From Chrysomallon squamiferum (lineage: Eukaryota; Animalia; Mollusca): a stretch of 64,000 bases of DNA. A program made the position numbers and the translations under genes. Each line of letters starts with the position of its first letter. Positions within the stretch are counted from its first letter, which is position 1. Below, one piece after another: positions 3,185-61,340 of this stretch. The notes under the pieces were generated by a model, which saw only the letters and a program-made list of their open reading frames with translations, had not been told where the DNA came from and did not search any database. The DNA is taken from NCBI GenBank assembly GCA_012295275.1, contig CM022679.1:3968001-4032000 (forward strand), in the 5' to 3' direction.

Positions 3185-6100
3185 CTGTGTCTCATTTTGT
3201 TTTTTGTTTTTTTTTATCTTTCTTTCTCTTCCTCTTATTTAATTTTTCTGTCCTTACTTTTTTCATGTCTGAAAATTTACAAATTATTTGTAGAACATTA
3301 TTTATTGAAGAATTGTTATTTATTATATTTTCTGTGTCTCATTCTGTTTGTTTTTTTTGTTTTTATTTATATTTCTATCTCTTCCTCTTATTTTCTTTTT
3401 CTGTCCTTACTTTTTTCTTGTATGTAGCATATTTACAAATTATTGTTAGAACATTTTCCAGTAAAGATTTTCAATATAAAACACATTATTTTTAAATTAA
3501 AAACATTATTATCTTAATTTGAAACATTGATCCAAATATATGTTCTCTTGTTACATAGATTCATCAATTGTTGGAAATAATTAAAGCTTTCAAAAACAGT
3601 AACATCAAAGAATAATTAATAATCAAATTTCCAGGATGAAAATCCGATGTTATTATTTTCTTTGTTTTTTCAGAATTACCACGGCAACCAGTGATAAGAA
3701 ATGTCACATTGTCACCCACTACAGAGAACAGTGTCATCATCACCTGGACACCTGGCTTTGATGGCAACAGTCCCCTGAAGAGATATATCATCAGCTACAG
3801 GGTTCAAGTTCAAGGTTAGTAACCTGAATAAATGAATATGTTAGTGAACAGGAAGAAACACTTTGTGATAAATGGAGATAAACAGCAAGGATGAATGGAA
3901 GGAAGAATGAATGGAAAATGAACTGGAAAAACAAGTGAATTTAGATGAAAATTAGTGAATAAGTAGAAAGTCAATGAATAAATAAAGAGAATGTTTGTTT
4001 ATCAGTATATTATATATTGTGATAGTTAGTTGGCATGTTTGTATATTGTGCTAATAGTAACAAAGAGAACAACATCACAGTTTTTACTCAATAACAGTAA
4101 ATATATTTTATTTAAACCTCCCAACAGAAAGAGTTTGATAATTAGTTGTTTTTTTTGTTTAAAATTAAAGAAAATATCCTAAGAAAATATCCAAATGAAA
4201 AGTAATATACCAGGCTATTATATTATCAATATTTACTTATTTTATGGTTAATTTCATTATTAAACTTCTTAAATTTCTATGTCATGATATGACTGTCTGT
4301 ATCTTATATCAATAATTTTTATTAACTTATTTTATGGTTAATATGGATTATTAAATTCTTGAATTTCTATATGTGTTATGTTATGACCGTCTGTCATTAG
4401 CAATTTTTTAAATAATATTTGCAGGTGCTAACAATGATAACTCAAGATGGCTGGTTTATCCAGACATAATTCCACCCACTACGACTAGGTACACAGTGTC
4501 GAACCTGCAGCCTTCCCGTTACTACAAGTTTAAAATCAGCGCTGTTAATTCAGTAGGCGAAGGAAATGCCAGCATTGCTAAACCAGAACCAGCAATTCAG
4601 ATGCCACCACAACGTAAAACATCGTTCCTACTACTATTACTGTTATTGCTGTTGTTTTTGTTATTATTAAAACTACTACTCTTTTTCCCAGTTTAAGTTT
4701 AATAGCAATGCAACTGTAACTTTATTATTGATTTCACAATTTAAAAAGTCTTATTATTGTTGTTGTTATTATTATTATTATTATTATTTGTATTATTATT
4801 TACTTAAATTTACTTTAAAAATTTTATGTTAAGAATAAAATAGTACATTATTATATTATGTTTTAGAAAAAATCTGAAGATAAAATTGATAAATTTGTTA
4901 TATTTCATATTTCTTTGTTACACAAATGTGAATATTCACCAAAAAAAAAGCCAGAAAAGTGTATTTTTACATGCATCTTATTTAATATAGCAATAAACAT
5001 ATACATATTGATAAATGCAGATACATATGCATTTATTGTATAAAAGACTATGATATCTATATTAATAGATATTTTTTTACAAATATAACTTTACTAATAT
5101 AACTGTAACATGGGTATTTGTTGTTGTATTTAATGTATTTTCCCTTTTTGAATTTTAGCCCCAAGTAAAGAACCAAGAAGTTTTTACTGCAGCCCTGGAG
5201 CTGACAGGTCTATCGTGGTGAAGTGGCAGGCTCCAGAAGAATCGTCATGGAACGGTGACCTGCTCGGCTACATCATAAAATACAGAGTTGCACATTATCC
5301 TGACAGTGCCCTGCAGTACATCAACATCAGCGACAGCCGTGCAACAAACTACCTCCTGGAGAACCTCGTCTACCACAAACAGTACGAGGTGGCCATAGCA
5401 GCATACAACGTCAAGGGTCCTGGCAAATACAGTGGTTATTTCCTGATATGGACTTCTGAAGGTCGACCAACTGCTCCTCCACAGGACGTATCCCTTTTGT
5501 CGACAAACTCAACCACAATAAAAGTGACCTGGATGCCTCCAGATCCAACCCAGATTAATGGGATCAATCAGGGATATACGATTAGGATTCGTAGAAGTTC
5601 CGTTTCTCACATGGAAAGAAGTGAATTTGTTCCGGCAGATCAGTCTAATTTGTATGGTCGACAGATGACTTATGTTTTCCGCCTGCTGAAGTATACAGAG
5701 TATGTAATAACTATTGTATGTCACACAGGAGAGGTGTTGGTCCCGCCAGCCAGCCACAGACTATCAGAACTCAGGAGGATGGTAAGTAATTTTTGTTCTT
5801 GCTGTTAAGTTTGTTTTGATTATTAAATGTTTGTTTAATTAAGTAATTTAGTTCAGTGTTCTGAAGTAGTGGAATTGTAATCGTTCTTTAACAGTGTTGG
5901 TAACTGTTTTATCTGTTGTTTTGTTGCATTCAAATTAATGCAGTCTGCTTACTCCCTTTTTTTCTAGATAAGTTTATTATTATTAGTTATTTCTTATTAT
6001 ACGTTTTATATCAATTATATTAAGTTTATTTATATATTAAAGTTTTATTCCATGGATTAGTTGCTTAATCTATGACATTTGCTTATTTTTATAAAATCAG

Positions 6101-9100
6101 AAAAAGAATCACATTGAAATAAGAATAAAATAAATAATTATTTGAATTTTAAACTTTTTATTTTATTATTGACATATTTATCAGTCTCTTCAGATAGTTC
6201 ATTGAATTAGATATTAATATTTTAATATAACTTCACTTTCTAAACAAACTTATTAAAAAATACAATTTAAAAACATGATATAAAAATATGTAAACCAATC
6301 CTTACAATAATTTTAATTAATCTTCTACTTCATTTTTCAGTTCCTGGTGAGGTTGGTGACTTGAAGTTTGACAACGTGCGCGACAGAACGTTGAGAGTGT
6401 TGTGGACTGCCCCACAAGAAATCAATGGAAAACTTTTAGGTTTGTTTTTGTATTTCCAGTCACTATCACACTAGCCAGCATTTTTACCTGCCCTGATTAA
6501 TGGTTATGCAGACATTTTATATAATTTTTAAAATTGATTCTCACCTCAGAAGTAAATTGAAAAATCAGAAATTAGAAATGCAGATTCATGTACTGAAAAA
6601 AGAATTTTGACTTTAAGTCAAACTGTAATTATGAGAGAAAAAATTGTGAACTTGAAATATGATACATACAGCAGGACAGACATTTTAATTAGCTGTGCAC
6701 AGTTTATGTTTTATTAGCTGAATCACACAAAGTATGTGACTGTTTGTTGTCTAGGTTACACACTGATGTGGGAGAAGAAGAATGAATCGGACACAAGAAG
6801 ACGAGTTCTGCTTCCGTCGAACCTGACTCGCTACACTGTGAGAGACTTGTCCCCAATGACCATGTATACAATCCATGTAAACGCTCGCACTAGGAAAGGA
6901 GACGGTCGGACTAAGAGTGCTGATATCAAATCAGGTGTCCCACCAGGTAAGCAGTTAATCTAACATTAACAGGTATTTTGAAGTGGCAACACACTCAACA
7001 GAATTTTGTAGTTATGGTTTTGTTGTTAAGGACTTTGCAGATAATGAGAGAGGGTTGGTTTTGAAGAAAAATTTATATATAGAATTGAAAAATCTGTTTG
7101 GTTTAAAAAAAATTCATAAAAAATTTTTGCTAGTTCATATAATTCAAATCAAAATTTGAAAAAAATGATGATAATTTTGGAATTTTTAGTAATTTGATCC
7201 TTTTTTTCTAAAAAGATAATAAAAAAATATGTATTTTTAACAAAATGATCTATTTAAAATATATATTTTTGTAAAACAATAATTGTTTTCAACTATTATT
7301 GGAATGCCTGTATCCATCAAAGTCTTAAAGTAAATCTATTTTGCACTTAAATTTCAGAACTTCCAACAGAACCATTCAACTTGGCCTACAGCAACATAGA
7401 AGCGAGATCGGTACTGCTGCAGTTTCTGCCAGGCTACAACGGCAAAACCTCCATCACTCTGTGGATCGTCGAAGCCCTGGAAGGAAGCAGCATGCGCTGG
7501 AGACCCATCTACAACATCTCCGACCCAAACGCCAGAGCGATTACCGTTCTGAACTTGAAGCCGTACACGAAGTATCAACTGCGAGTGATTGCAGAGAACA
7601 TCGTCGGTCGAAGCAACGCCAGTGCACCGACTCGTGAGTTCGAGACAAAGCAGGATGCCCCATCGAAGCCTCCTGGCAACGTCACTGTGAGAGCATTGAA
7701 TTCAACAACTCTGAGGATCAGCTGGAATGTAAGTGATTGTTGTCTCAGTTTTGTGTCACTGAACTGATATTTGTGTGATGTTTTTTTTTTATCTGATATG
7801 TAAAAATTGTGTTTAGTGATCAGAACATGAAAAAGCATGTGATATAAGTATAATATTGACATGAAAAATGTTATATGTAAGTATAATAGTTGGTGCATTA
7901 ATTGACACATTATTTCTGGTTATTATGACATGGGATACTTTATAAAAACAAGTAAAAATTAAGGGTACAGTACTGGACTTATTAACCAATATGTAAAATG
8001 TTTTAATACACAGGTACAAGGGATCTTTTCTTAAGCACATTGTGAATAATTATGTGTGTTTAAGCAATAATTTGTTAATTGACAAATATAAAAATTGTGT
8101 TTGATGTAATAATGTGTTAAACATAAAAATTTGTGTTCTAAAGTAATGTATTAGAAATCATGTATAATTTATGCTTTAAAGTAATAAATATAAATTTTGT
8201 TTGTAAGTAATAAATACAAATTATGTTTTAAAGTAATAAATATAAATTTTGTTTTAAAGTAATAAAATTAAATTTTGTTTTAAAGTAATAAATATAAATT
8301 TTGTTTTAAAGTAATAAATATAAATTTTGTTTTAAAGTAATAAATATAAAGTTTGTTTTAAAGTAATAAATATAAATTTTGTTTTGAAGTAATAAATATA
8401 AGTTATGTTTTAAAGTAATAAGTATAAATCTAGTTATGAAGTGTCAGTGTTTTAAGAAACCTGTTTAAAACTGACTACATATCACACAGCCTCTAGCACT
8501 GGTAGACTGGAACGGAATTCCAAGAGGCTACAACATCATGTATCGCATGACGCTTCCACAAAACGGTCAGCCAGACGACTTCCACAAGATCCAGCTGGAG
8601 AATGGCATGGATGTTGAGAGTTACATCTTGGTGGGGCTGCAGGAGTGGGTGGAATATCAAGTGAAAATGAACTCCTACAATGATGTGGGCAGCAGCAGCT
8701 TCAGTCCAGTGACTGGAGAAAGAACAAGAGAATCAGGTAGTTTTTTTTTTATAAAAATGAAAAAAAAAAAATATTTTGCATCTGTTTTTCAGAAATTTAA
8801 GTAGGATTTCTTTGTTTGAAATTCAGAAACATATTTTTAAAAATATTTTGTATCAGTTCTAATAATACATTCAAGGATTTATTTATTAGGTTTTTTCTTA
8901 TGTAAATTATTGAACATTTTCTCTAGAATGTTAATTTAAAAACAAATTAAAATTTATTTCCCGTTACTGTGGCAGATTTTAGATTTTACTTTATATCTAT
9001 TTGAATTAGACAAATTATTACTGCATAAGAAAACTGTAACACCATTTGAAAAATAAAGCTATTATTTATGCCCAAAATCTTTATTTCCACTCAGTTCCCA

Positions 9101-12352: not shown

Positions 12353-14660
12353 GTTTAGTATTATTATTATAATAATTATTATTATTTTTATTATTATTAT
12401 CAGCAAAACAGAATTGAACATTATTATTATTTATTTATATAAAGACTTGTGTATATCTGACAATTTAATTTCAGAATAAAGTGCTAACTGATTTAAATTA
12501 CTATCATTTCTTGTTGTATTCAGAGCCTGATGGGTCACCTCAGAATTTGAAGGTCAAGGCATTGACCATGACATCCATTCAGGTTTCCTGGAAGGTAAGT
12601 TGTATTTGTATGAAATTGTTTGAATATGATCGATTAACATTTTCAGTTTTTATTAAGAATCCATATACTAAATGCATGCATAGCTATGCCAGATATCTTC
12701 TGAAGTGGTTTTAAATGGAAGTTTTTTTTAATAGAATTACAATCTTTTAATTTTTTTTAAATTACTGATAATATATACATCACTGTTAAAATAAAATAAA
12801 TAAGAATTTCTTTAACTTTTCATTGTTTGAATCTGGCAAAGCTATGATTTTATGAGGTAATTGTTTTTAATTTGTCTTTAATTTACAGAAATGCTCATGC
12901 ATTGTGCAACTGTTACTGAAAAACTAACTGTCAGTGTGTTGAATTACCATCCTGTTTTATTTGGCTTGTTATTATATTTATGTGAAAATACATTCAAGAA
13001 TTTATTTAATATACATTCAAGGACTTCTTTAATATTGCTACATGTATTGATTTGATGATTCAAATATATTACTTTCTGTTTCAGTTGCCTGTCACCTCAT
13101 AAAGATTCTGATTTTGCATATCAGATCATTTGATACCTATCTAGGCTTTCTCTTAATATTATTGTTTCAAATGCATGTCTATTTTCAAGCTGCCTCCTAA
13201 GGAAACATGGAATTTTCATAATATTGGAATCCGTGTGCGTTACAAAAACAATATAGACCTTGTTTGGAGCTTCCAGTTTGAGGATGATAACACATCGACC
13301 GTTATTGAAAAGCTGACCAATGGTCAGGGTTATATTGTCAGTGTCCAGGCCTATAATGTTTTTGGCAGTGGGCCCTGGAGCAGTAATAGTTTCATAGTTC
13401 TTGAACTGGGTAACTTTACATATAGTCAGTCAGTCCATATCATCTGCTTAGTACGTTCTGTTTTTTTTGTTAATGGTTGGTATGTCACTGATGCAAGGGA
13501 AATTATATTTCAAATGCAGTTTATATAGATTTTAAAAACATTTTTATCCCAGGTTTTTTTTTTTGTGTTCCAATTTTAATGATTTAAAAATAAATAGTTA
13601 TTTTTCCCATTATGGTGGCAGATTTTAGATTTTATACACCTTTTAATATTTAATAAATTTAGTAAGCTTAGTCTAATGTTTTTATATGGCATCTGGTTCT
13701 TTTATCCCTCTCCCCCCTTTAAAAATATCTACCCATAAATGTTTCATTATCTCTGTCTGTCTTGAAGCATTTCATAATTTTAAAAAATCCAGTGGATATT
13801 TTTGTTTTGGAAAAGGGAAGGAAAAAAACAAACAAAAAATTATGAAGAGACCAAAGAATAGAATATTTCCTGTAAAATAAATATAAATTAAAAAAAAAAA
13901 AAAAGACCACAGCAAAAAAAAAAAATTAAACAATTGCATTTGAAACTGCATTCTTAAGCATCAAATAAAACACCCCATCCATTTTAAAATTTCTATTTTT
14001 TTTTTTTTTTCACATTGTCATTGTTATGTTTCATTACTGGTGTTGTGTGCATGCTACACATTGTATTTCGTGGAGTGTATGTGTACTTCAGTATTGTGCC
14101 TTTTTTGTTGTCCCCAGCAACCACCGTCAGAAACTTGGAACGGGCAGATTGTAGGCTACATTGTTCAGTACCGCCAGCTTCACTTGGCCGACTTCCAGGA
14201 AGAAACAGTTCCGTTTCAACACAACACGATAAACCTGGAGAATCTCGTTAAGAAAAAACATTACGAGGTCCAGGTTTTGGCATTCAATGCCATAGGTCAG
14301 GGACCTCCAAGTACCCCAGCCACTATTTATGTAGGCGAAGCTGGTAAGGGCTAGAGAAAGAATTAATTGTGAATTAGTATTAATATATCAAAGATTAGGA
14401 GATAAATTTGACAAAAAAAAAAAAAAAAAAAAAAAAAAATAAAAAAAAATTTGAACTAACAGAAAGGAAAGTCTCGTCATAAGCTAAACCAACAACATAA
14501 AGAGAAATAAATGTTGAACAAAATCAGCAGTGAATTAAGTGGACATTTAATTCAGTTTAGAAATTTTTAACTCTGTAACAAAGAATAGTTAAAAATATTT
14601 CCGCTCTTTTTCTTTATTTTCCTGTATTTATTTATTTATTTATTTATTTATTTATTATAT

Positions 14661-14692
<32 letters not shown>

Positions 14693-15086
14693 ATTAAAGG
14701 TATAAGGAATGTATTTTATTAATATTGCAGTTTTATCAAAAATATATGATTTAATTCAGGTAATTTGGAATTAAATTTTACCTTGTTTTTGATTGTTTGG
14801 GTAATATTGTTAATTAATAAATGTTCCTGTAAATTAATAAATCATTATACAGAAATTTTAATAGGATGTGAAATTAACTAAAATAAATGACATGTATAAT
14901 AAATATTTAATATTGAAGTAATATCTAAGTAAGCAAATAAAATGATTCACAACTACAACTGTAGTAAAAATAATAATCATAACAAAAATAAGAAAGATAT
15001 ATTTAAGAATTATTACATTATACATTTATATAATTCAGTTTACTTTTCTAATAATAATACTAAAAATATTAAAAATAAATAAAAAA

Positions 15087-15145
<59 letters not shown>

Positions 15146-15274
15146 ATGAAATGAAATAAAATAAAACCAAGAGATAAAAAATTCAACTTTTTAAATATGA
15201 TAACCAATTTTTAATTCAAATATTTATTGTAAAATTATATACACCAATAAAAAAAAAAAGAAAAGAAAAGAACA

Positions 15275-15308
<34 letters not shown>

Positions 15309-17381
15309 TTAAAATAATTACACAAATTTTGTTTCATTACAGTTACCACTAATTATTGTTATTGTTTTTATTATTATTCATTATTACAGTTATTATTTTC
15401 CTTTTTCTTTCTACAGTTTTTCCTCCCTTCACCCAAATTACAATTTTTATTTTTTATTTTATTTTTTTAAATATTAAATAATATTATTTTGAAAAATCCT
15501 TTACTTTCTTTTGCTTCATTCATTTTCATCTTGTGCTTTTTTGTTTTTTTTTAAATATTTTTATTTGCGCTTTACATTGTGAGATTTGTATGTTGTTAAC
15601 AGCATTGGTGTTTACTTTGTTTATTTTGTGATAAATCTATTTAGACTGCTATTTGTTAGTTCATGTTTGGTGTTAACTCTGTTTGGATTGTTCAAAGATT
15701 TACGTAAAAATGTGTGAAGTGAATATTGTAATGTGTATTATAAAAAAATATAAATGTAGTGAAATGAAGTAATTTTCAGGCAAGTCAATTTGTAATATGA
15801 AATATATTAATTTAATGTTTAACTTGATTTCACGTAATTTAATTTAATTTAATTTGTTTTTGTTTTTTTCTTTACCCGAATTTTATATGAGTTATGTTCC
15901 TTAAGTTTTTACTGTGAATGTATAATGATCCAAATGAACTCCTTTAGAAATAGAAAAATTAAGAGATCATTGTTTGAAAAGTTATGGACTGATTTAAGCA
16001 AATTACAAATTCTGATAAGGAAAATTTTAAAGAAAAGATTTATTTTGCATAATATGAAATTTTTATTTTATTATTATTTTTTTAAATCAAAATTTATCTT
16101 AACTGGCTAACCACTGTTTATAAAAAAACAACAACAACCCAAAACATTGAAAAACAAAAACAATACAAAGACAAACAACAAAGAACAAATGCATTTTTTT
16201 TGTGTCTAAAATGAGTTATTTACAAATCTCAGAATAATTTAAAATACGTAATTAAATAACACAACAGTCTATAAATCCTTGCCTGTTTCCACTGTTTATT
16301 AAAATATTTTAATTTAAAAAAAAAATGTATATTATTATTTTTAACTTTTTTTATTTTTTTTAAAGTAGATTATTTCATTTCATTTATTTAACAGCCCCAA
16401 CTCAAGCACCATCCAATGTACGAGCGATATCCCAGAGTTCATCATCTATATATATCACTTGGACCCCCCCACCCCCAGCGTCACAGAATGGAGGACTGTC
16501 TGGATACAAGGTAGATCTTTAATAAACTCACTGTGAATTATTAACATGGTTTTTCTGCAGAGATGCTAAACTTCATTAGAAAAATTATTAGAAAATCTAC
16601 ATGAAAATTACTTAATAATTGGTAAAAAAGAAGCCATAATAAAAAGGTATGTTTTATTTATTAATCTATCGTTGAAAATCTGCATACACGCGCACTGTTC
16701 CCCTATGCAGGAATAGGAGGGCATCCACCCTGACCCTTTTTGGGGGCTGCCCTTGTGCCCAAAATTCAGAACAGATGCCCGCCCCCCTCATTTGCCTAAA
16801 TTCTCATAATTATTACAATACTTCTTCAAAAAAGTCTATCATTACTACTGTCTGCAGGCATCAGTTTGTCAGGCAAACAACACTTTTTAGTGCCAGTGAA
16901 CGAACATGAAAGTCACTTTTATAGCAGATTCTATACTGGCCAGCCAAATGTTATACAAACCAAACAGTTAATCTACTGAATGTGGTTAAAATATTTTTAA
17001 AATGTTAATGTTTAAAATTTTAATTCCTTTTTCATATATGAATTCTATTTTTCGATTCTGTCATGTATTGCAGATTCTCTACTGGCCAGCCAACATGTCT
17101 ACTGAGCATGCTCAGACTAAAATCTCCCCTGACTCTCATTTTCTCCTGGGAGAACTGGACACATTCACTATGTATCGGATGACTGTCCAAGCTTACAATT
17201 TGGCTGGAGATGGTCCAAAAAGTGTCATAGTGTCTAATCGTACTCTGGAAGGAGGTAATTGATAAATGTTTTTATTATTGTTATTTTTGTATAGGTGTAG
17301 GTGTGTTCTTCGTTATTTTTCTTTTTGTTTCCTTCTGATTTTATCATGATCATGATCATAATCATGATGATGATGATGATC

Positions 17382-17419
<38 letters not shown>

Positions 17420-20400
17420 TAGAATTTAATTATTTTATTTATAAAATTGCCATTTTGTCTATAATACATCTACTAGAACATCTCTTTTCTGTTGTTTTTT
17501 TTCTCTAAATTAATCTTTTTTGCCTCATGCATAATAGTTTCATTTGTTTCAAAACATAAATTATTGCCGAAATCAAGATGTTGCAAAAGATGTTTGTTAT
17601 TTAAATTGTTGTTAAAATGGCTCGACAAAATTAATTTGACATTACTTTTTAAGTTCATTAAATGTCAGTGCAGTAAAAGATTTTAGAAGTTACTACATTA
17701 TTTTTCAGTTCCAACCATTCCTGGAGAGCTGCACTTTTCAAATATAACATTAGAGATGATCACAGTGAGATGGTCATCGCCACAGAAACCCAATGGAAAG
17801 ATCATCAAATATGAACTTATTTACTTTCTCTCTCAGCCTGATGGATGTAAGAAGTGATTTGTCTTTGTTTTAGCAGTAGAGTTACAAGTTGATGTTTAAT
17901 TAGTAGTTGTACTTCAGTTTATGCATTTGTGTTATTGTGGGTGGCAGAATCAGTCTTGCTTGGGGCTGCTTTCTGTGATACTTGTTGAGTTATCAAAGAT
18001 TCCTTGCTTCAGGTAGTCAAGGGTAAACTACATCTTCTTTTTTTTCGACTTTATATTTTTGAAAAGAGATTGAATCAATAATGAAAAATAAAACACCAAA
18101 ACACCCCAACATAATTAGCAATGAAAATTGACTGTACATTTATTTTTTTAATATTTCTTCTTGCATTGAGTTCTTTCCCTTTGTTTCAGTGGAGACCAAG
18201 TTGGTGAAGCTTTTCCTCAATGGCTCCCAGCACCGCATCACTATTGATGAACTGAACGAATACAGCAACTACACGTTTGAGATACGTGCACGAACATCAG
18301 TGGGCTTTGGTCCAGCAAGGACAAGCAGCGTAGTGACCGGTCCACAGCCTGGCTGTAAGAACTGATCATTTATTTATCTACTTTAACAGGTCTTGTCACT
18401 GCACTTTTTTCCTTCATCTGTGACTTCTCCTTTATGTTAGCATCTTTCCCTGACTGTGCTGTGCCCTCGAATTGATTTTGTTGTCTTTCCATCAATCCTG
18501 TCTCTATTCTGACCTGTTGTAATAAAAGACTTATTTGTTTTGAAAAATTGTAAATGTAAGAGTTCATTCCAGGACTGTTTGTGTCATCCATCAGAGATTC
18601 AGTGTTGTGACAGTCTGGAGTTGAAATTATTTTGGAAAGGAACACGGAATTTCATTTCCTTTTATTTGAATCAAATTTGTTTTGGTTATCTGGTTTTGAA
18701 GTATTGATTAAAAAACAGCATGATGGAGCCACTAGATCTATTCACTTTGATGTAAGATTAATTTTATCATACTTGAAGAATATGTCAACCACCAAACTGT
18801 TTTCCACTCCACACAGTATCAGATGAAACAAACCAGAATGGAATGGAGGCAGACACTTTTCTGTCATACCAGTAAACAAAAAACACTGCATCACTTAACT
18901 GTCATTGTAAAGTTTTTTTTATTTTGTTTTTGTTGCAGTGGCCCCAGGCAAACCAACAAAACCAGTTTTGGAATTGAAAGACAAGTTTGTCACGTTGTCC
19001 TGGATGAACACTGGGGAAGGATCATCTCAGATTTACGGCTACAAGATTCAGGCTAAAGCAGAAGGTAACAATTCTTTGTCTTCAAACTGACTAAAACTTA
19101 CAACATTGTTATTGTAAATTTCCTGAAAAATAAAATAAATATTAATTATTACGATTTAAACAATTTTTTTTCACAAACATTTCATTACTTTCATTTATTT
19201 ATTTTATTTATTTATATTTATATTACTATTTCGTCTGAAAAGTCTTAAAAACCCCACAAAAAACAAGCAACATTTGTCTATTTTTTCTTCTCCAGATGAG
19301 CAAAAGTTTATGACAATTATGCAGAAGAACTCGCGTGAACCGACAGCTTTGATCAGCTTCCAGAACTTGACGCCAGACACTCGCTACCAGTTCCGTGTGA
19401 TAGCCATCAACTCAGACAGCATCAGTCCTCCCAGTGACCCCTCACAGTACCAGCTAACTCCTGGACCAGGTGACCCTTCAAACATCTCTTCTTTATTAAA
19501 CTGTGTTTTAGACATGTAGGTACACAGAGATCTAATTTAATGTATGAGTAAAATGCCTTGATACATGTTAAAGAGTCTGAGCTCAGAAAAATAACTTGTG
19601 TACCAGGTGAAACTTTATTTCTATTGTTAAATAAATTAGCTGTGTATCACTTGATCAAAGAGTTCTGATTATATCTTCACAGCGGTCAGTCCTATTGGCA
19701 CAGTAAAGCCGTTCCACACAGAGTGGTGGTTCCTGGTTATCATTGCGCTTACCGGAGTCATCATCATCCTGGTCATCATCTCCTTGTTGTGTCTTGTCAG
19801 TCGCAGACACAAATCTAACAGTGAGCTGCTTTTATTTATTAAAAGTCATTCTTTGTGTTCAGATGCTGTTTTATATCATGCTAAAATTCAGTTTTTGTAA
19901 TTCTGTTTTCCAAAAATGTAGAATGTCAGTATCTTGGAATAGAAGTTTAAGGGACAATGAGTTTTTGACATTAATGTAGCATATTGTTTCTGAATAATTT
20001 AATAACATTACTCTAATTGTCATTTTATGTCTGTTTTGTATCTGTCTGCTATCTTCTGCCTGCCTCTCTCTCTGTCTCTCTGTGATATTTGTAGTCTCTG
20101 TTTATCCACTTGCTAATGCACATACTTTTTGTGACAAAGAGATGAAAAGGTCCCAGACAACGACCACTGTAGCCTCCGAGTCACCTGAGCCAGATGATGG
20201 AGGATTTCCAACATACGAGCTGCGACAGTCCAGAAGAAATGTCAATATGAGAAATGGCTCGGCTAAAAATATATATGCAAGGTTTGTTTGTGTTTTTTAA
20301 ATTCAAAATAATATCATCTTCTGTTTAATGAAATTAAAAAATAAAAAATAATAATAATAATTTTGGTTTGTGAATTTTAAGACTGATAACAAAAAAACCA

Positions 20401-49953: not shown

Positions 49954-50527
49954 CAGAATCACAAAAGATCATCAACCCAGGAGTTTTAAACAGCAAAAAA
50001 AAGCATACAGCTAAACTTTGAACACTGTTTTAGCTTTAAATATATAATTTAATAATAATATATATATATTAGTTATAAGTTTTAAATTTAATTAACATTA
50101 CATAACTTTAATATACAATGTAATATCTCTGTATGACAAATTTTCGTCAGTGTGTAATCTAAGACATGGGGAAAAAACAGTTTCATTTCCTTAATATTTC
50201 AGACATCAGTGCAGCTCCTAATGGTTCAGCATCTGTCCCGATGAGCTACATGTTCACGGGTAAAAAGACAAATAAACACATGGACAAACTCTCGCAAATA
50301 TTTTTCGGGTGTAGAGAGAATTCAGTGGATAAAGTACATTGAATGGATCGTATGAAGTTTCATTTTAAGTTTTAGATATAATTAATGTGATTATTTGGGT
50401 TTTTTACGAGAAAGTAAAACGTCAAAAAGTCAAGTTTTCATGTATTGGTTAAAGGTGGGCTAATTCTACGACTAACTCAGCTATAAGAATAACAGAAAAC
50501 TCGAACACTTATAGCAGCGACGTAACT

Positions 50528-55525: not shown

Positions 55526-56029
55526 ATTTAAAACAAACTCTCATTCCTCCAGAAACGTGAAGTCAAACTTTCCTCTGGCTTAAATTTAATCGAAACACAA
55601 ATTGTCATAAACCATCAAAACCGCGACCCACCAGACATCAAAACAGGAAATTCAAAACGTCAAAAAGTAAATAGAAAATGTCAAAATAGCAAGCACAAAC
55701 GTCAAAGTTTCAAAATTTCAATGTCAAAACTTCATTGTGAAAACAAAGGAACTACGAAGTCAAAGCATCAAAAGGAAATGTCTACGTTTTCTAAAACTCA
55801 AAAAAAAAAAAAAAAAAATTAAAAAAACAAACAAAACAAATCACTCTTTTGTTCCTGATCGTGGAGTAACTCAACTGTTACGAATGCTTTATATAAGCCA
55901 CAAAAAAATTTTAATTTGTGAGATAACAGTAGCGTTGGCATGGCCTTTATGAAGGATCGAATTGTTTCCCGTTATCCTTTAAAAAGTTCACCATACTCTC
56001 GAGGCTCCGATTGTAATATTAATTTCCAG

Positions 56030-56330
56030 GCCGAGTTTCGCCACACGGTGTCAGCATTCATCAGCACGCGCAGACGGTCACACGAGACGGACGCGAGGGG
56101 AAACAACGCGAAGTGCCGAACTGAACTGTCTCGCCTTCTGGTCCAACTCCTGTTTCTCTCCGTCGTATTGGCGTCACCGGTTCACCGCTATCAGATATGA
56201 TTGGTAAACTCAGTTGGTGTTTTATCGATTCGGTTCTTACCTGATCTGTGATAGCACTACGGCTTGTATCTTTTCTACGATAAGAGGTGGGAGATAGCGC
56301 AAAGAACAAAGACTACGTGCGTTGGCGTAT
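56030..56330 (-). promoter_or_regulatory. Probable promoter and 5' UTR region of the Ly6 gene
   Basis: Locally CpG/GC-rich; two minus-strand CCAAT boxes (about 56167-56171 and 56200-56204); Inr-like TCAGTT (about 56119-56124); minus donor CAG|GTAAG at 56241/56240 and a strong minus acceptor at 55791. Confidence 0.45.
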
Positions 56331-61001: not shown

Positions 61002-61340
61002 GTGGATCTTATTGGCTGAGTTAGAAAGAACAAAAAAAACAGCATTCACATTAATTATATTAAGACTTAAAATGAGACTTCAGAAGATCCATTCAAACTT
61101 GAATCCAGAAACAACCGTAAAAGATAGATTTTCCATGTGTTTATTTGTCTTTTTACCCGTGAACATGTAGCTCATCGGGACAGATGCTGAACCATTAGGA
61201 GGTGCACTGATGTCTGATTTTTTTCCCGTGTCTTAGATTACACACTTACGAAAATTTGTCGTACTCACCTTCGTGCTATAACAGAGATATTACATTGTAT
61301 ATTAATTTTTTGTAATGATAATAAATTTTTTAATTTATCA

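Follow-up and report, generated by a model that had tools for sequence, protein, structure and literature searches.

Two tandem exons for the tenth FN3 domain of a Sidekick gene: one spliced by default, the other a likely minor alternative

Introduction

Can a Sidekick gene exchange most of one of its extracellular domains by choosing between two tandem exons? The question is raised by a 64,000-nt stretch of contig CM022679.1 (assembly GCA_012295275.1, positions 3,968,001 to 4,032,000 of the forward strand; the window hereafter, with positions counted from its first letter). The first 21.3 kb of the window are the 3' part of a Sidekick gene, and the window begins inside that gene. An earlier reading made from the letters alone (the sequence-only reading) had proposed that two paralogous exons, A and B, lie between constant exons U and D, are mutually exclusive and swap most of FN3 domain 10. 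Here we report that A and B are a real tandem exon pair of which one at a time keeps the reading frame, that B dominates in RNA, and that A looks selected. We are fairly confident that the isoform switch is real, with A as the minor form: B is the exon that is spliced in by default, and A is likely a version of FN3-10 that is under selection but seldom used.

Sidekick proteins are adhesion receptors of the immunoglobulin superfamily. They start with six Ig domains, and 13 FN3 domains, a single transmembrane segment and a C-terminal GFSSFV are further marks of the family (PMC7479261). Their binding specificity is located in Ig1-4 (PMC7479261). The FN3 domains reportedly run along the membrane, and their roles are poorly understood (PMC7479261; PMC5045292).

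Results

Exons A and B are a tandem pair that keeps the frame only one at a time

All four exons lie on the forward strand of the window. Constant exon U (12524-12594, 71 nt) encodes the first 23 residues of FN3-10 and ends in phase 0; it was placed by a frame check, the gene model and RNA. Constant exon D (16395-16510, 116 nt) begins in phase 1 and encodes the start of FN3-11; it was placed by frame and gene model, and its first bases follow B in RNA contigs. Between them lie exon A (13190-13409, 220 nt, 73 codons) and exon B (14118-14343, 226 nt, 75 codons). Either encodes the rest of FN3-10, and both run from phase 0 to phase 1. Exon B is documented by frame, Pfam, RNA joints and homologs at 61-79% identity, and exon A by frame, Pfam and the ortholog P0117 (see below), with no junction seen. 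The four exons are all bounded by AG and GT, and the coordinates, lengths and phases given by the sequence-only reading were correct.

Translation was open through U-A-D and U-B-D. Joining all four exons shifted the frame and produced a stop inside B, and joining U directly to D also shifted the frame. The proposed logic that exactly one of the two exons must be used is thus borne out by translation, and the count of 13 FN3 domains in the gene model holds with either exon, as had been claimed.

The two exons are homologous. In the alignment 25 of 71 residues are identical (35%, where the estimate by eye had been ∼30%), with a BLASTP E value of 7e-10. When exon A was compared with the gene's 13 FN3 domains, its best match was B (z 13.3), followed by FN2 (z 9.0). 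Pfam fn3 scores were 26.2 bits for A and 47 bits for B (cut-off 25). Diverged as it is, exon A has an open frame, as the sequence-only reading had noted, an outcome reached by 128 of 20000 base shuffles of A, and its GC content is 41% (GC3 0.43) compared with 18-27% in the three introns; both go beyond chance. A single contig of sequencing run X5 (record 24) covers both exons and no indel is listed inside A, so that the pair is not an assembly artefact. Neither a third copy of A/B nor any other duplicated Sidekick exon was found within the window. The second part of FN3-6 (8490-8736) has an exon layout like that of A and B, with a phase 0 start and a phase 1 end, a likely remnant of ancient repeats within Sidekick.

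Exon B is the spliced default

Contigs of four of the five runs listed, namely three RNA runs from one study and run X5, which covers introns like DNA, were placed on positions 12400-14600. In all three RNA runs U was joined to the preceding exon, and in all three U was joined to B, at depths of 47, 16.5 and 11.6. The U>B joint was the only one listed between alternative and constant exons. Exon B continued into the first bases of D in all three runs (B>D seen as a loose end); D lies outside the region used, and a U>D skip would likewise be detectable only as a loose end. No A>B joint was listed in the three RNA runs, whose contigs have low power for it.

These contigs show that B dominates in RNA, and the use of A is unproven from them. 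Of the junctions that the sequence-only reading had proposed to count, U>B was present in three of three RNA runs and no junction of A was listed in any of them. Contigs drop rare forms, and this type of evidence has low power for a rare isoform.

A coding variant was noted in each exon. At 14133 in B a Thr to Ser change is found in all four runs, and at 13253 in A an Ile to Val change is found in part of X5's depth; both residue changes were worked out from the sequence.

Exon A looks selected

A search of 1.84 billion representative proteins with exon A gave one specific match among the 150 listed, protein P0117 from an ENA assembly, which is 76% identical to A over A's last 58 residues. The sequence-only reading had held that A would be a decayed duplicate if no reads used it and its counterpart were absent or disrupted in relatives; the second half of this condition fails, because over these 58 residues the ortholog is intact. 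P0117 reads LEL-G-K at its end before it departs from A, as expected if its exon had a G/GTAA donor in the matching position and the protein continued into the intron; the read-through tail is 7 residues long, and the likeness to A stops right at the donor.

The changes between A and P0117 (14 of 58 residues, one of them the start-codon Met) were compared with those between B and its closest homolog, P0153 (ENA, 79% identical; B's homologs span 61-79%), which differs from B at 16 of 75 residues, or 12 of 60 on the matched part. The mean BLOSUM62 score of the changes was 0.62 in both pairs. A simple neutral simulation that allowed no indels kept the frame free of stops in 1215 of 3000 runs; in 18 of the 3000 the changes were also equally conservative. 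In X5 contig 24, 1 of 220 bases of exon A differs, compared with 17 of 516 intron bases (Fisher p 0.019). Judged by its sequence, exon A looks selected.

How long ago the exon was duplicated is a separate matter. The 35% identity between A and B compares with 60-65% between B and its five most distant homologs. Exon A is further from B than B's distant homologs are, which fits an old duplication or fast change in A after it. Of the proposal of an old, selected switch, the selected part is supported by the conservative changes in P0117; the old part is one of two readings, fast change in A fitting as well. An NTS glycosylation sequon is indeed present in A (residue 34), but as a conserved, selected feature of the exon it was rejected, because it is absent from P0117. 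Among the 150 listed proteins, mostly FN3-rich, none had a Sidekick-like end, and an Atlas search returned only generic FN3 clusters.

Splice-site strength and predicted RNA pairing

Of 21 exons of the gene, exon A alone has an acceptor that reads AAG. With a matrix derived from this gene, acceptor scores were 3.4 bits for A and 10.3 bits for B, and donor scores 4.4 and 6.3 bits. Exclusion by steric hindrance, for which an intron under 50 nt is the criterion (PMC5740500), was rejected, because the intron between A and B is 708 nt long. No U12-type donor was seen by eye.

A helix scan over ten region pairs of the introns predicted two crossing 12-bp helices. In the first, element S1 (13164-13175, 26 to 15 nt before A's acceptor) is a perfect 12-bp complement of 13935-13946 (duplex -16.8 kcal/mol), within a putative shared docking element of the A-B intron (13932-13946). 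This helix would cover the bases before A's acceptor and loop out A. In the second, an element just after A's donor (13428-13439) is predicted to pair with a downstream docking element in the B-D intron (15983-15994; duplex -17.9 kcal/mol), which would loop out B; otherwise 13428-13439 is predicted to fold back on A's donor. An 11-nt word of S1 flanks A on both sides (13165 and 13508), and each copy complements 13935-13945. The second copy lies in predicted element S2 (13508-13521), a competing partner for 13932-13945 (duplex -15.8 kcal/mol), so that the shared docking element is predicted to pair with S1 or with S2.

Such a two-partner site arose in 1 of 3000 shuffles. When the helices were restricted to 50 nt at A's splice sites, they were reached by 10 and 8 of 1000 shuffles. 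Because these proximal windows were chosen afterwards, the same two tests were run on all 26 exons, and exon A ranked first in both (4 of 300 and 1 of 300 shuffles), the next best of the 51 tests being 9 of 300. At B's own splice sites no helix stood out (275 of 500 and 311 of 500 shuffles).

It is possible, if somewhat doubtful, that the switch is real but that exclusivity is brought about by splice-site strength, protein regulators and nonsense-mediated decay (NMD) alone, the helices being chance products of AT-rich introns. Several results lean this way and speak against pairing control. In the whole-intron test neither helix was significant, 57 of 200 and 12 of 100 shuffles reaching them. 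In global folds the A-looping helix had a low pairing probability (only 0.038 and 0.001), with the second copy at 13508 preferred, and 13428-13439 paired with A's donor, the B-looping helix forming only when the donor was left out. Of 121 overlapping windows from other parts of the sequence, 4 (at two places) have a two-partner site as well, and the splice-site-proximal tests were designed after the helices had been seen. Frame-shifting exon lengths are found in 60% of human clusters of mutually exclusive exons (PMC5740500). Against chance stand the first rank of A in both tests among the gene's exons, the rarity of the two-partner site in shuffles, and a geometry that matches that of serpent exon 4 (see Discussion). 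On balance we give even chances to exon choice being steered by RNA pairing, as modelled here.

A further intronic stretch before B's acceptor (14069-14104) is apparently conserved in a relative, as judged from peptide: the read-through of P0153 matches the intron before B at 9 of 12 aligned residues, and 0 of 4260 other 63-nt windows score as high. This stretch sits in a predicted local fold of -19.7 kcal/mol and is a candidate splicing regulator. The stretch at 12702-12721 is predicted to pair imperfectly with the shared site (13933-13954; -16.9 kcal/mol); as a third partner it, too, would loop out A. The longest inverted repeats were discarded as pairing candidates because they are microsatellites. 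Inverted (TTTA)n and (TAAA)n microsatellites at 14607-14716 and 15039-15166 lie in the B-D intron; if they formed a hairpin, the downstream helix would close a shorter loop. Rfam gave no match in the window.

Alternative readings of exon A

Several findings count against exon A being a used and selected alternative. The U>A joint is absent from the contigs of all three RNA runs, and no loose end at A's donor leading to D is among those listed for them. Cover on A is at depth 2-5 in two RNA runs, with contigs running into introns, and is near 0 across most of A in the deepest run. The low-depth cover reads as pre-mRNA or DNA and was not counted as expression, because it crosses splice sites and lies upstream of runs of the base A at 13890 and 13914. 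The ortholog evidence consists of one protein sequence (the one candidate of a follow-up search), and P0117 and P0153 may stem from different species. A search for homologs of A among proteins of 129-2000 residues, a range that full-length Sidekicks (>2000 residues) exceed, gave 5 candidates, none of which scored, and of 129 and 65 pattern matches in JGI contigs none was confirmed. The polymorphism contrast weakens to p 0.12 when clustered intron sites are merged to 11, and A's single variant in X5 is non-synonymous.

These findings bear first on the idea that A was functional in an ancestor and is now silent in this species, with decay not yet visible. The lack of A junctions in the three RNA runs, the AAG acceptor and otherwise weak splice sites, and the residue change made by the sole variant listed in A all agree with it. 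Yet A has neither a stop nor an indel, it has fewer variants than the flanking intron (p 0.019 to 0.12), and the predicted pairing elements are intact; moreover, three contig-based runs of one study have little power to reveal a rare isoform. We consider a silent A unlikely.

Exon A could also be an alternative last exon, its donor being ignored and intronic polyadenylation yielding a secreted ectodomain that ends at FN3-10. Low-depth RNA contigs pass A's donor to about 13550 in all three runs, six AATAAA or ATTAAA words occur in the A-B intron, and the frame is open for 39 codons beyond the donor. The same contigs, however, cross A's acceptor unspliced in X2 and X3, as pre-mRNA or DNA would. 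An intron of 27% GC is expected to contain hexamers of this kind, and the read-through tail is not conserved, being 7 residues in P0117, with the likeness stopping at the donor. A terminal exon is accordingly a quite improbable reading.

The least probable of these readings makes A a poison exon, which would enter transcripts along with B, throw them out of frame and so reduce Sidekick levels through NMD. The premature stop of U-A-B-D, the 708-nt A-B intron with no steric bar to joint inclusion, and the expected rarity of such transcripts in RNA, which matches observation, are all consistent with it. A conserved FN3 core, conservative substitutions and an open frame, however, all of them found in A, are things that a poison exon could do without.

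How the switch would work and what it would change

Used instead of B, exon A would exchange about 75 of the 98 residues that make up FN3-10. Exon A is probably a tandem copy of B in which selection preserved the FN3 core as the two grew apart, and B would win by default through its stronger splice sites. In the predicted B state, 13164-13175 and 13935-13946 would pair, mask the region before A's acceptor and loop A out, and 13428-13439 would fold back on A's donor. In the predicted A state, 13508-13521 would occupy the shared site and free A's acceptor, and 13428-13439 would pair with 15983-15994, freeing A's donor and looping B out. Transcripts with both exons or with neither would be frameshifted and likely removed by NMD.

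At the protein level, an alignment of 11 FN3 halves has four invariant columns, and exon A keeps all four. Folded with 2 sequences, A gave a pLDDT of 42 and no usable fold. Folded with 11 FN3 sequences, it gave a pLDDT of 75 and matched FN3 structures (best E 1.2e-3, TM 0.80; none at E 0.001 or better). The guided fold is given little weight, because its alignment was made of FN3 domains and A was without the first two strands. With guidance from other FN3 sequences, a model of A as an FN3 half can be obtained.

According to PMC7479261, no ligand for the FN3 stalk has been reported. Since specificity is located in Ig1-4 and the swap in FN3-10, we infer that the A/B choice probably has less to do with cell identity than with how the stalk packs, touches the membrane or meets a partner. 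The swap would alter a membrane-near stalk surface (packing in cis, membrane contact or partner site) rather than recognition by Ig1-4, and a Dscam-style identity code arising from it is unlikely.

The Sidekick gene and the rest of the window

The gene model was hand-built from the window sequence and runs on the forward strand from an Ig domain, taken as Ig4, through the stop codon (1-21293). Visible in the model are three Ig domains, 13 FN3 domains, of which U plus A or U plus B is the tenth, a transmembrane segment and a tail ending in GFSSFV. The three Ig domains are inside the window and Ig1-3 outside it. The transmembrane segment was read by eye as a hydrophobic run in an exon near 19700-19790, which is followed by three tail exons. 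With the last Ig domain as query, many chains of the immunoglobulin superfamily (IgSF) were matched, and Sidekick-1 reached only rank 25 of 43. The hexapeptide GFSSFV is at the C-terminus, and the tail resembles those given for octopus and oyster in Table 1 of PMC7479261, from which we infer that the host is probably a mollusc or of a related lineage.

In the exon at 5159-5781, which encodes FN3-2 and FN3-3, the sequence is one base short near 5735-5740 and the frame changes just before the exon end; the missing base is most likely a consensus error in the assembly. Beyond the gene, no other clear coding gene was seen among the open reading frames (ORFs) listed for 21.3-64 kb. Two similar copies of a dispersed repeat lie in opposite orientation at 50163-50352 (forward strand) and 61083-61232 (reverse strand), with near-identical ORF text. 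A GC-rich island (about 52%) at 55920-56310 stands in an AT-rich, microsatellite-rich stretch and is possibly the promoter or first exon of a neighbouring gene.

Discussion

These data suggest that (i) exon B is the default and exon A a likely minor alternative for FN3-10 of this Sidekick; and (ii) a pairing-based choice between them is a candidate mechanism. Mutually exclusive exons are a known class, of which the literature searched holds no case in Sidekick. The papers listed on Sidekick splicing, isoforms, exon duplication and molluscs (including PMC5045292 and PMC10084454), mostly without subscription papers and judged by title or the opening of the abstract, yielded no mutually exclusive exon of Sidekick. 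Section 4 of PMC7479261 describes no duplicated or swapped FN3 exon, and the Sidekick variants named there are only such as Ig-lacking Sdk1. Neither SDK1 nor SDK2 occurs in the supplementary tables of PMC5740500 and PMC8373072, where the controls PKM and ATE1 were found. The sequence-only reading, which knew of no such case described for Sidekick, thus agrees with the literature searched and with the human catalogues, although a prior database annotation is possible.

Selection for exchanging one FN3 domain would mark its surface as important and supply two natural variants for comparison. If the reading of A as a used alternative is true, particular cells would get a Sidekick stalk with a new binding surface, and the gene would provide a natural handle on the roles of the 13 FN3 domains. 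Gene models will miss exon A, because RNA so far shows B alone.

The pair shares its splicing type with arthropod Dscam1, an IgSF receptor with tandem mutually exclusive exons and docking-selector pairing. In Dscam1 the Ig domains responsible for binding specificity are encoded by large exon arrays, with isoforms in the tens of thousands, whereas the Sidekick window has two exons and two isoforms, in a stalk FN3 domain outside the Ig1-4 interface. The comparison with Dscam1 made by the sequence-only reading therefore holds for the type of splicing and fails for a recognition code, specificity being located in Ig1-4 (PMC7479261) and the swap in FN3-10.

The tandem-duplicated mutually exclusive exons of human genes are, like A and B, homologous, of similar length and of the same phase, and often one of the two is ubiquitous and the other restricted (PMC5740500, PMC8373072). 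In human clusters one exon is often dominant and the other limited to a tissue or stage (PMC5740500).

In its predicted pairing the Sidekick unit resembles Drosophila serpent exon 4.1/4.2, a duplicated pair with a weak first and a strong second exon, in which four intronic elements (one upstream, two between, one downstream) form two crossing stems, each looping out one exon (PMC4691838). The serpent pairing is backed by conservation and compensatory mutation (PMC4691838), and that of Sidekick is predicted from sequence. Unlike in serpent (PMC4691838), the upstream Sidekick element lies a short way in front of the acceptor of A, and the predicted shared site has an additional, competing partner. 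This last feature is like human ATE1 exons 7a/7b, where two elements compete for one between-exon site and a second long-range helix is present (PMC7797038); the ATE1 pairing is experimentally validated (PMC7797038), the Sidekick pairing predicted. Serpent is an unrelated gene, so that its likeness to the Sidekick pair would be convergent, if any. We regard it as a tentative proposal that a mollusc-like lineage evolved a Sidekick switch with a diverged second FN3-10, crossing stems and competing elements, convergent with serpent and ATE1. If the helices hold, pairing control of the serpent and ATE1 type would extend to another animal lineage, within a 4-kb unit.

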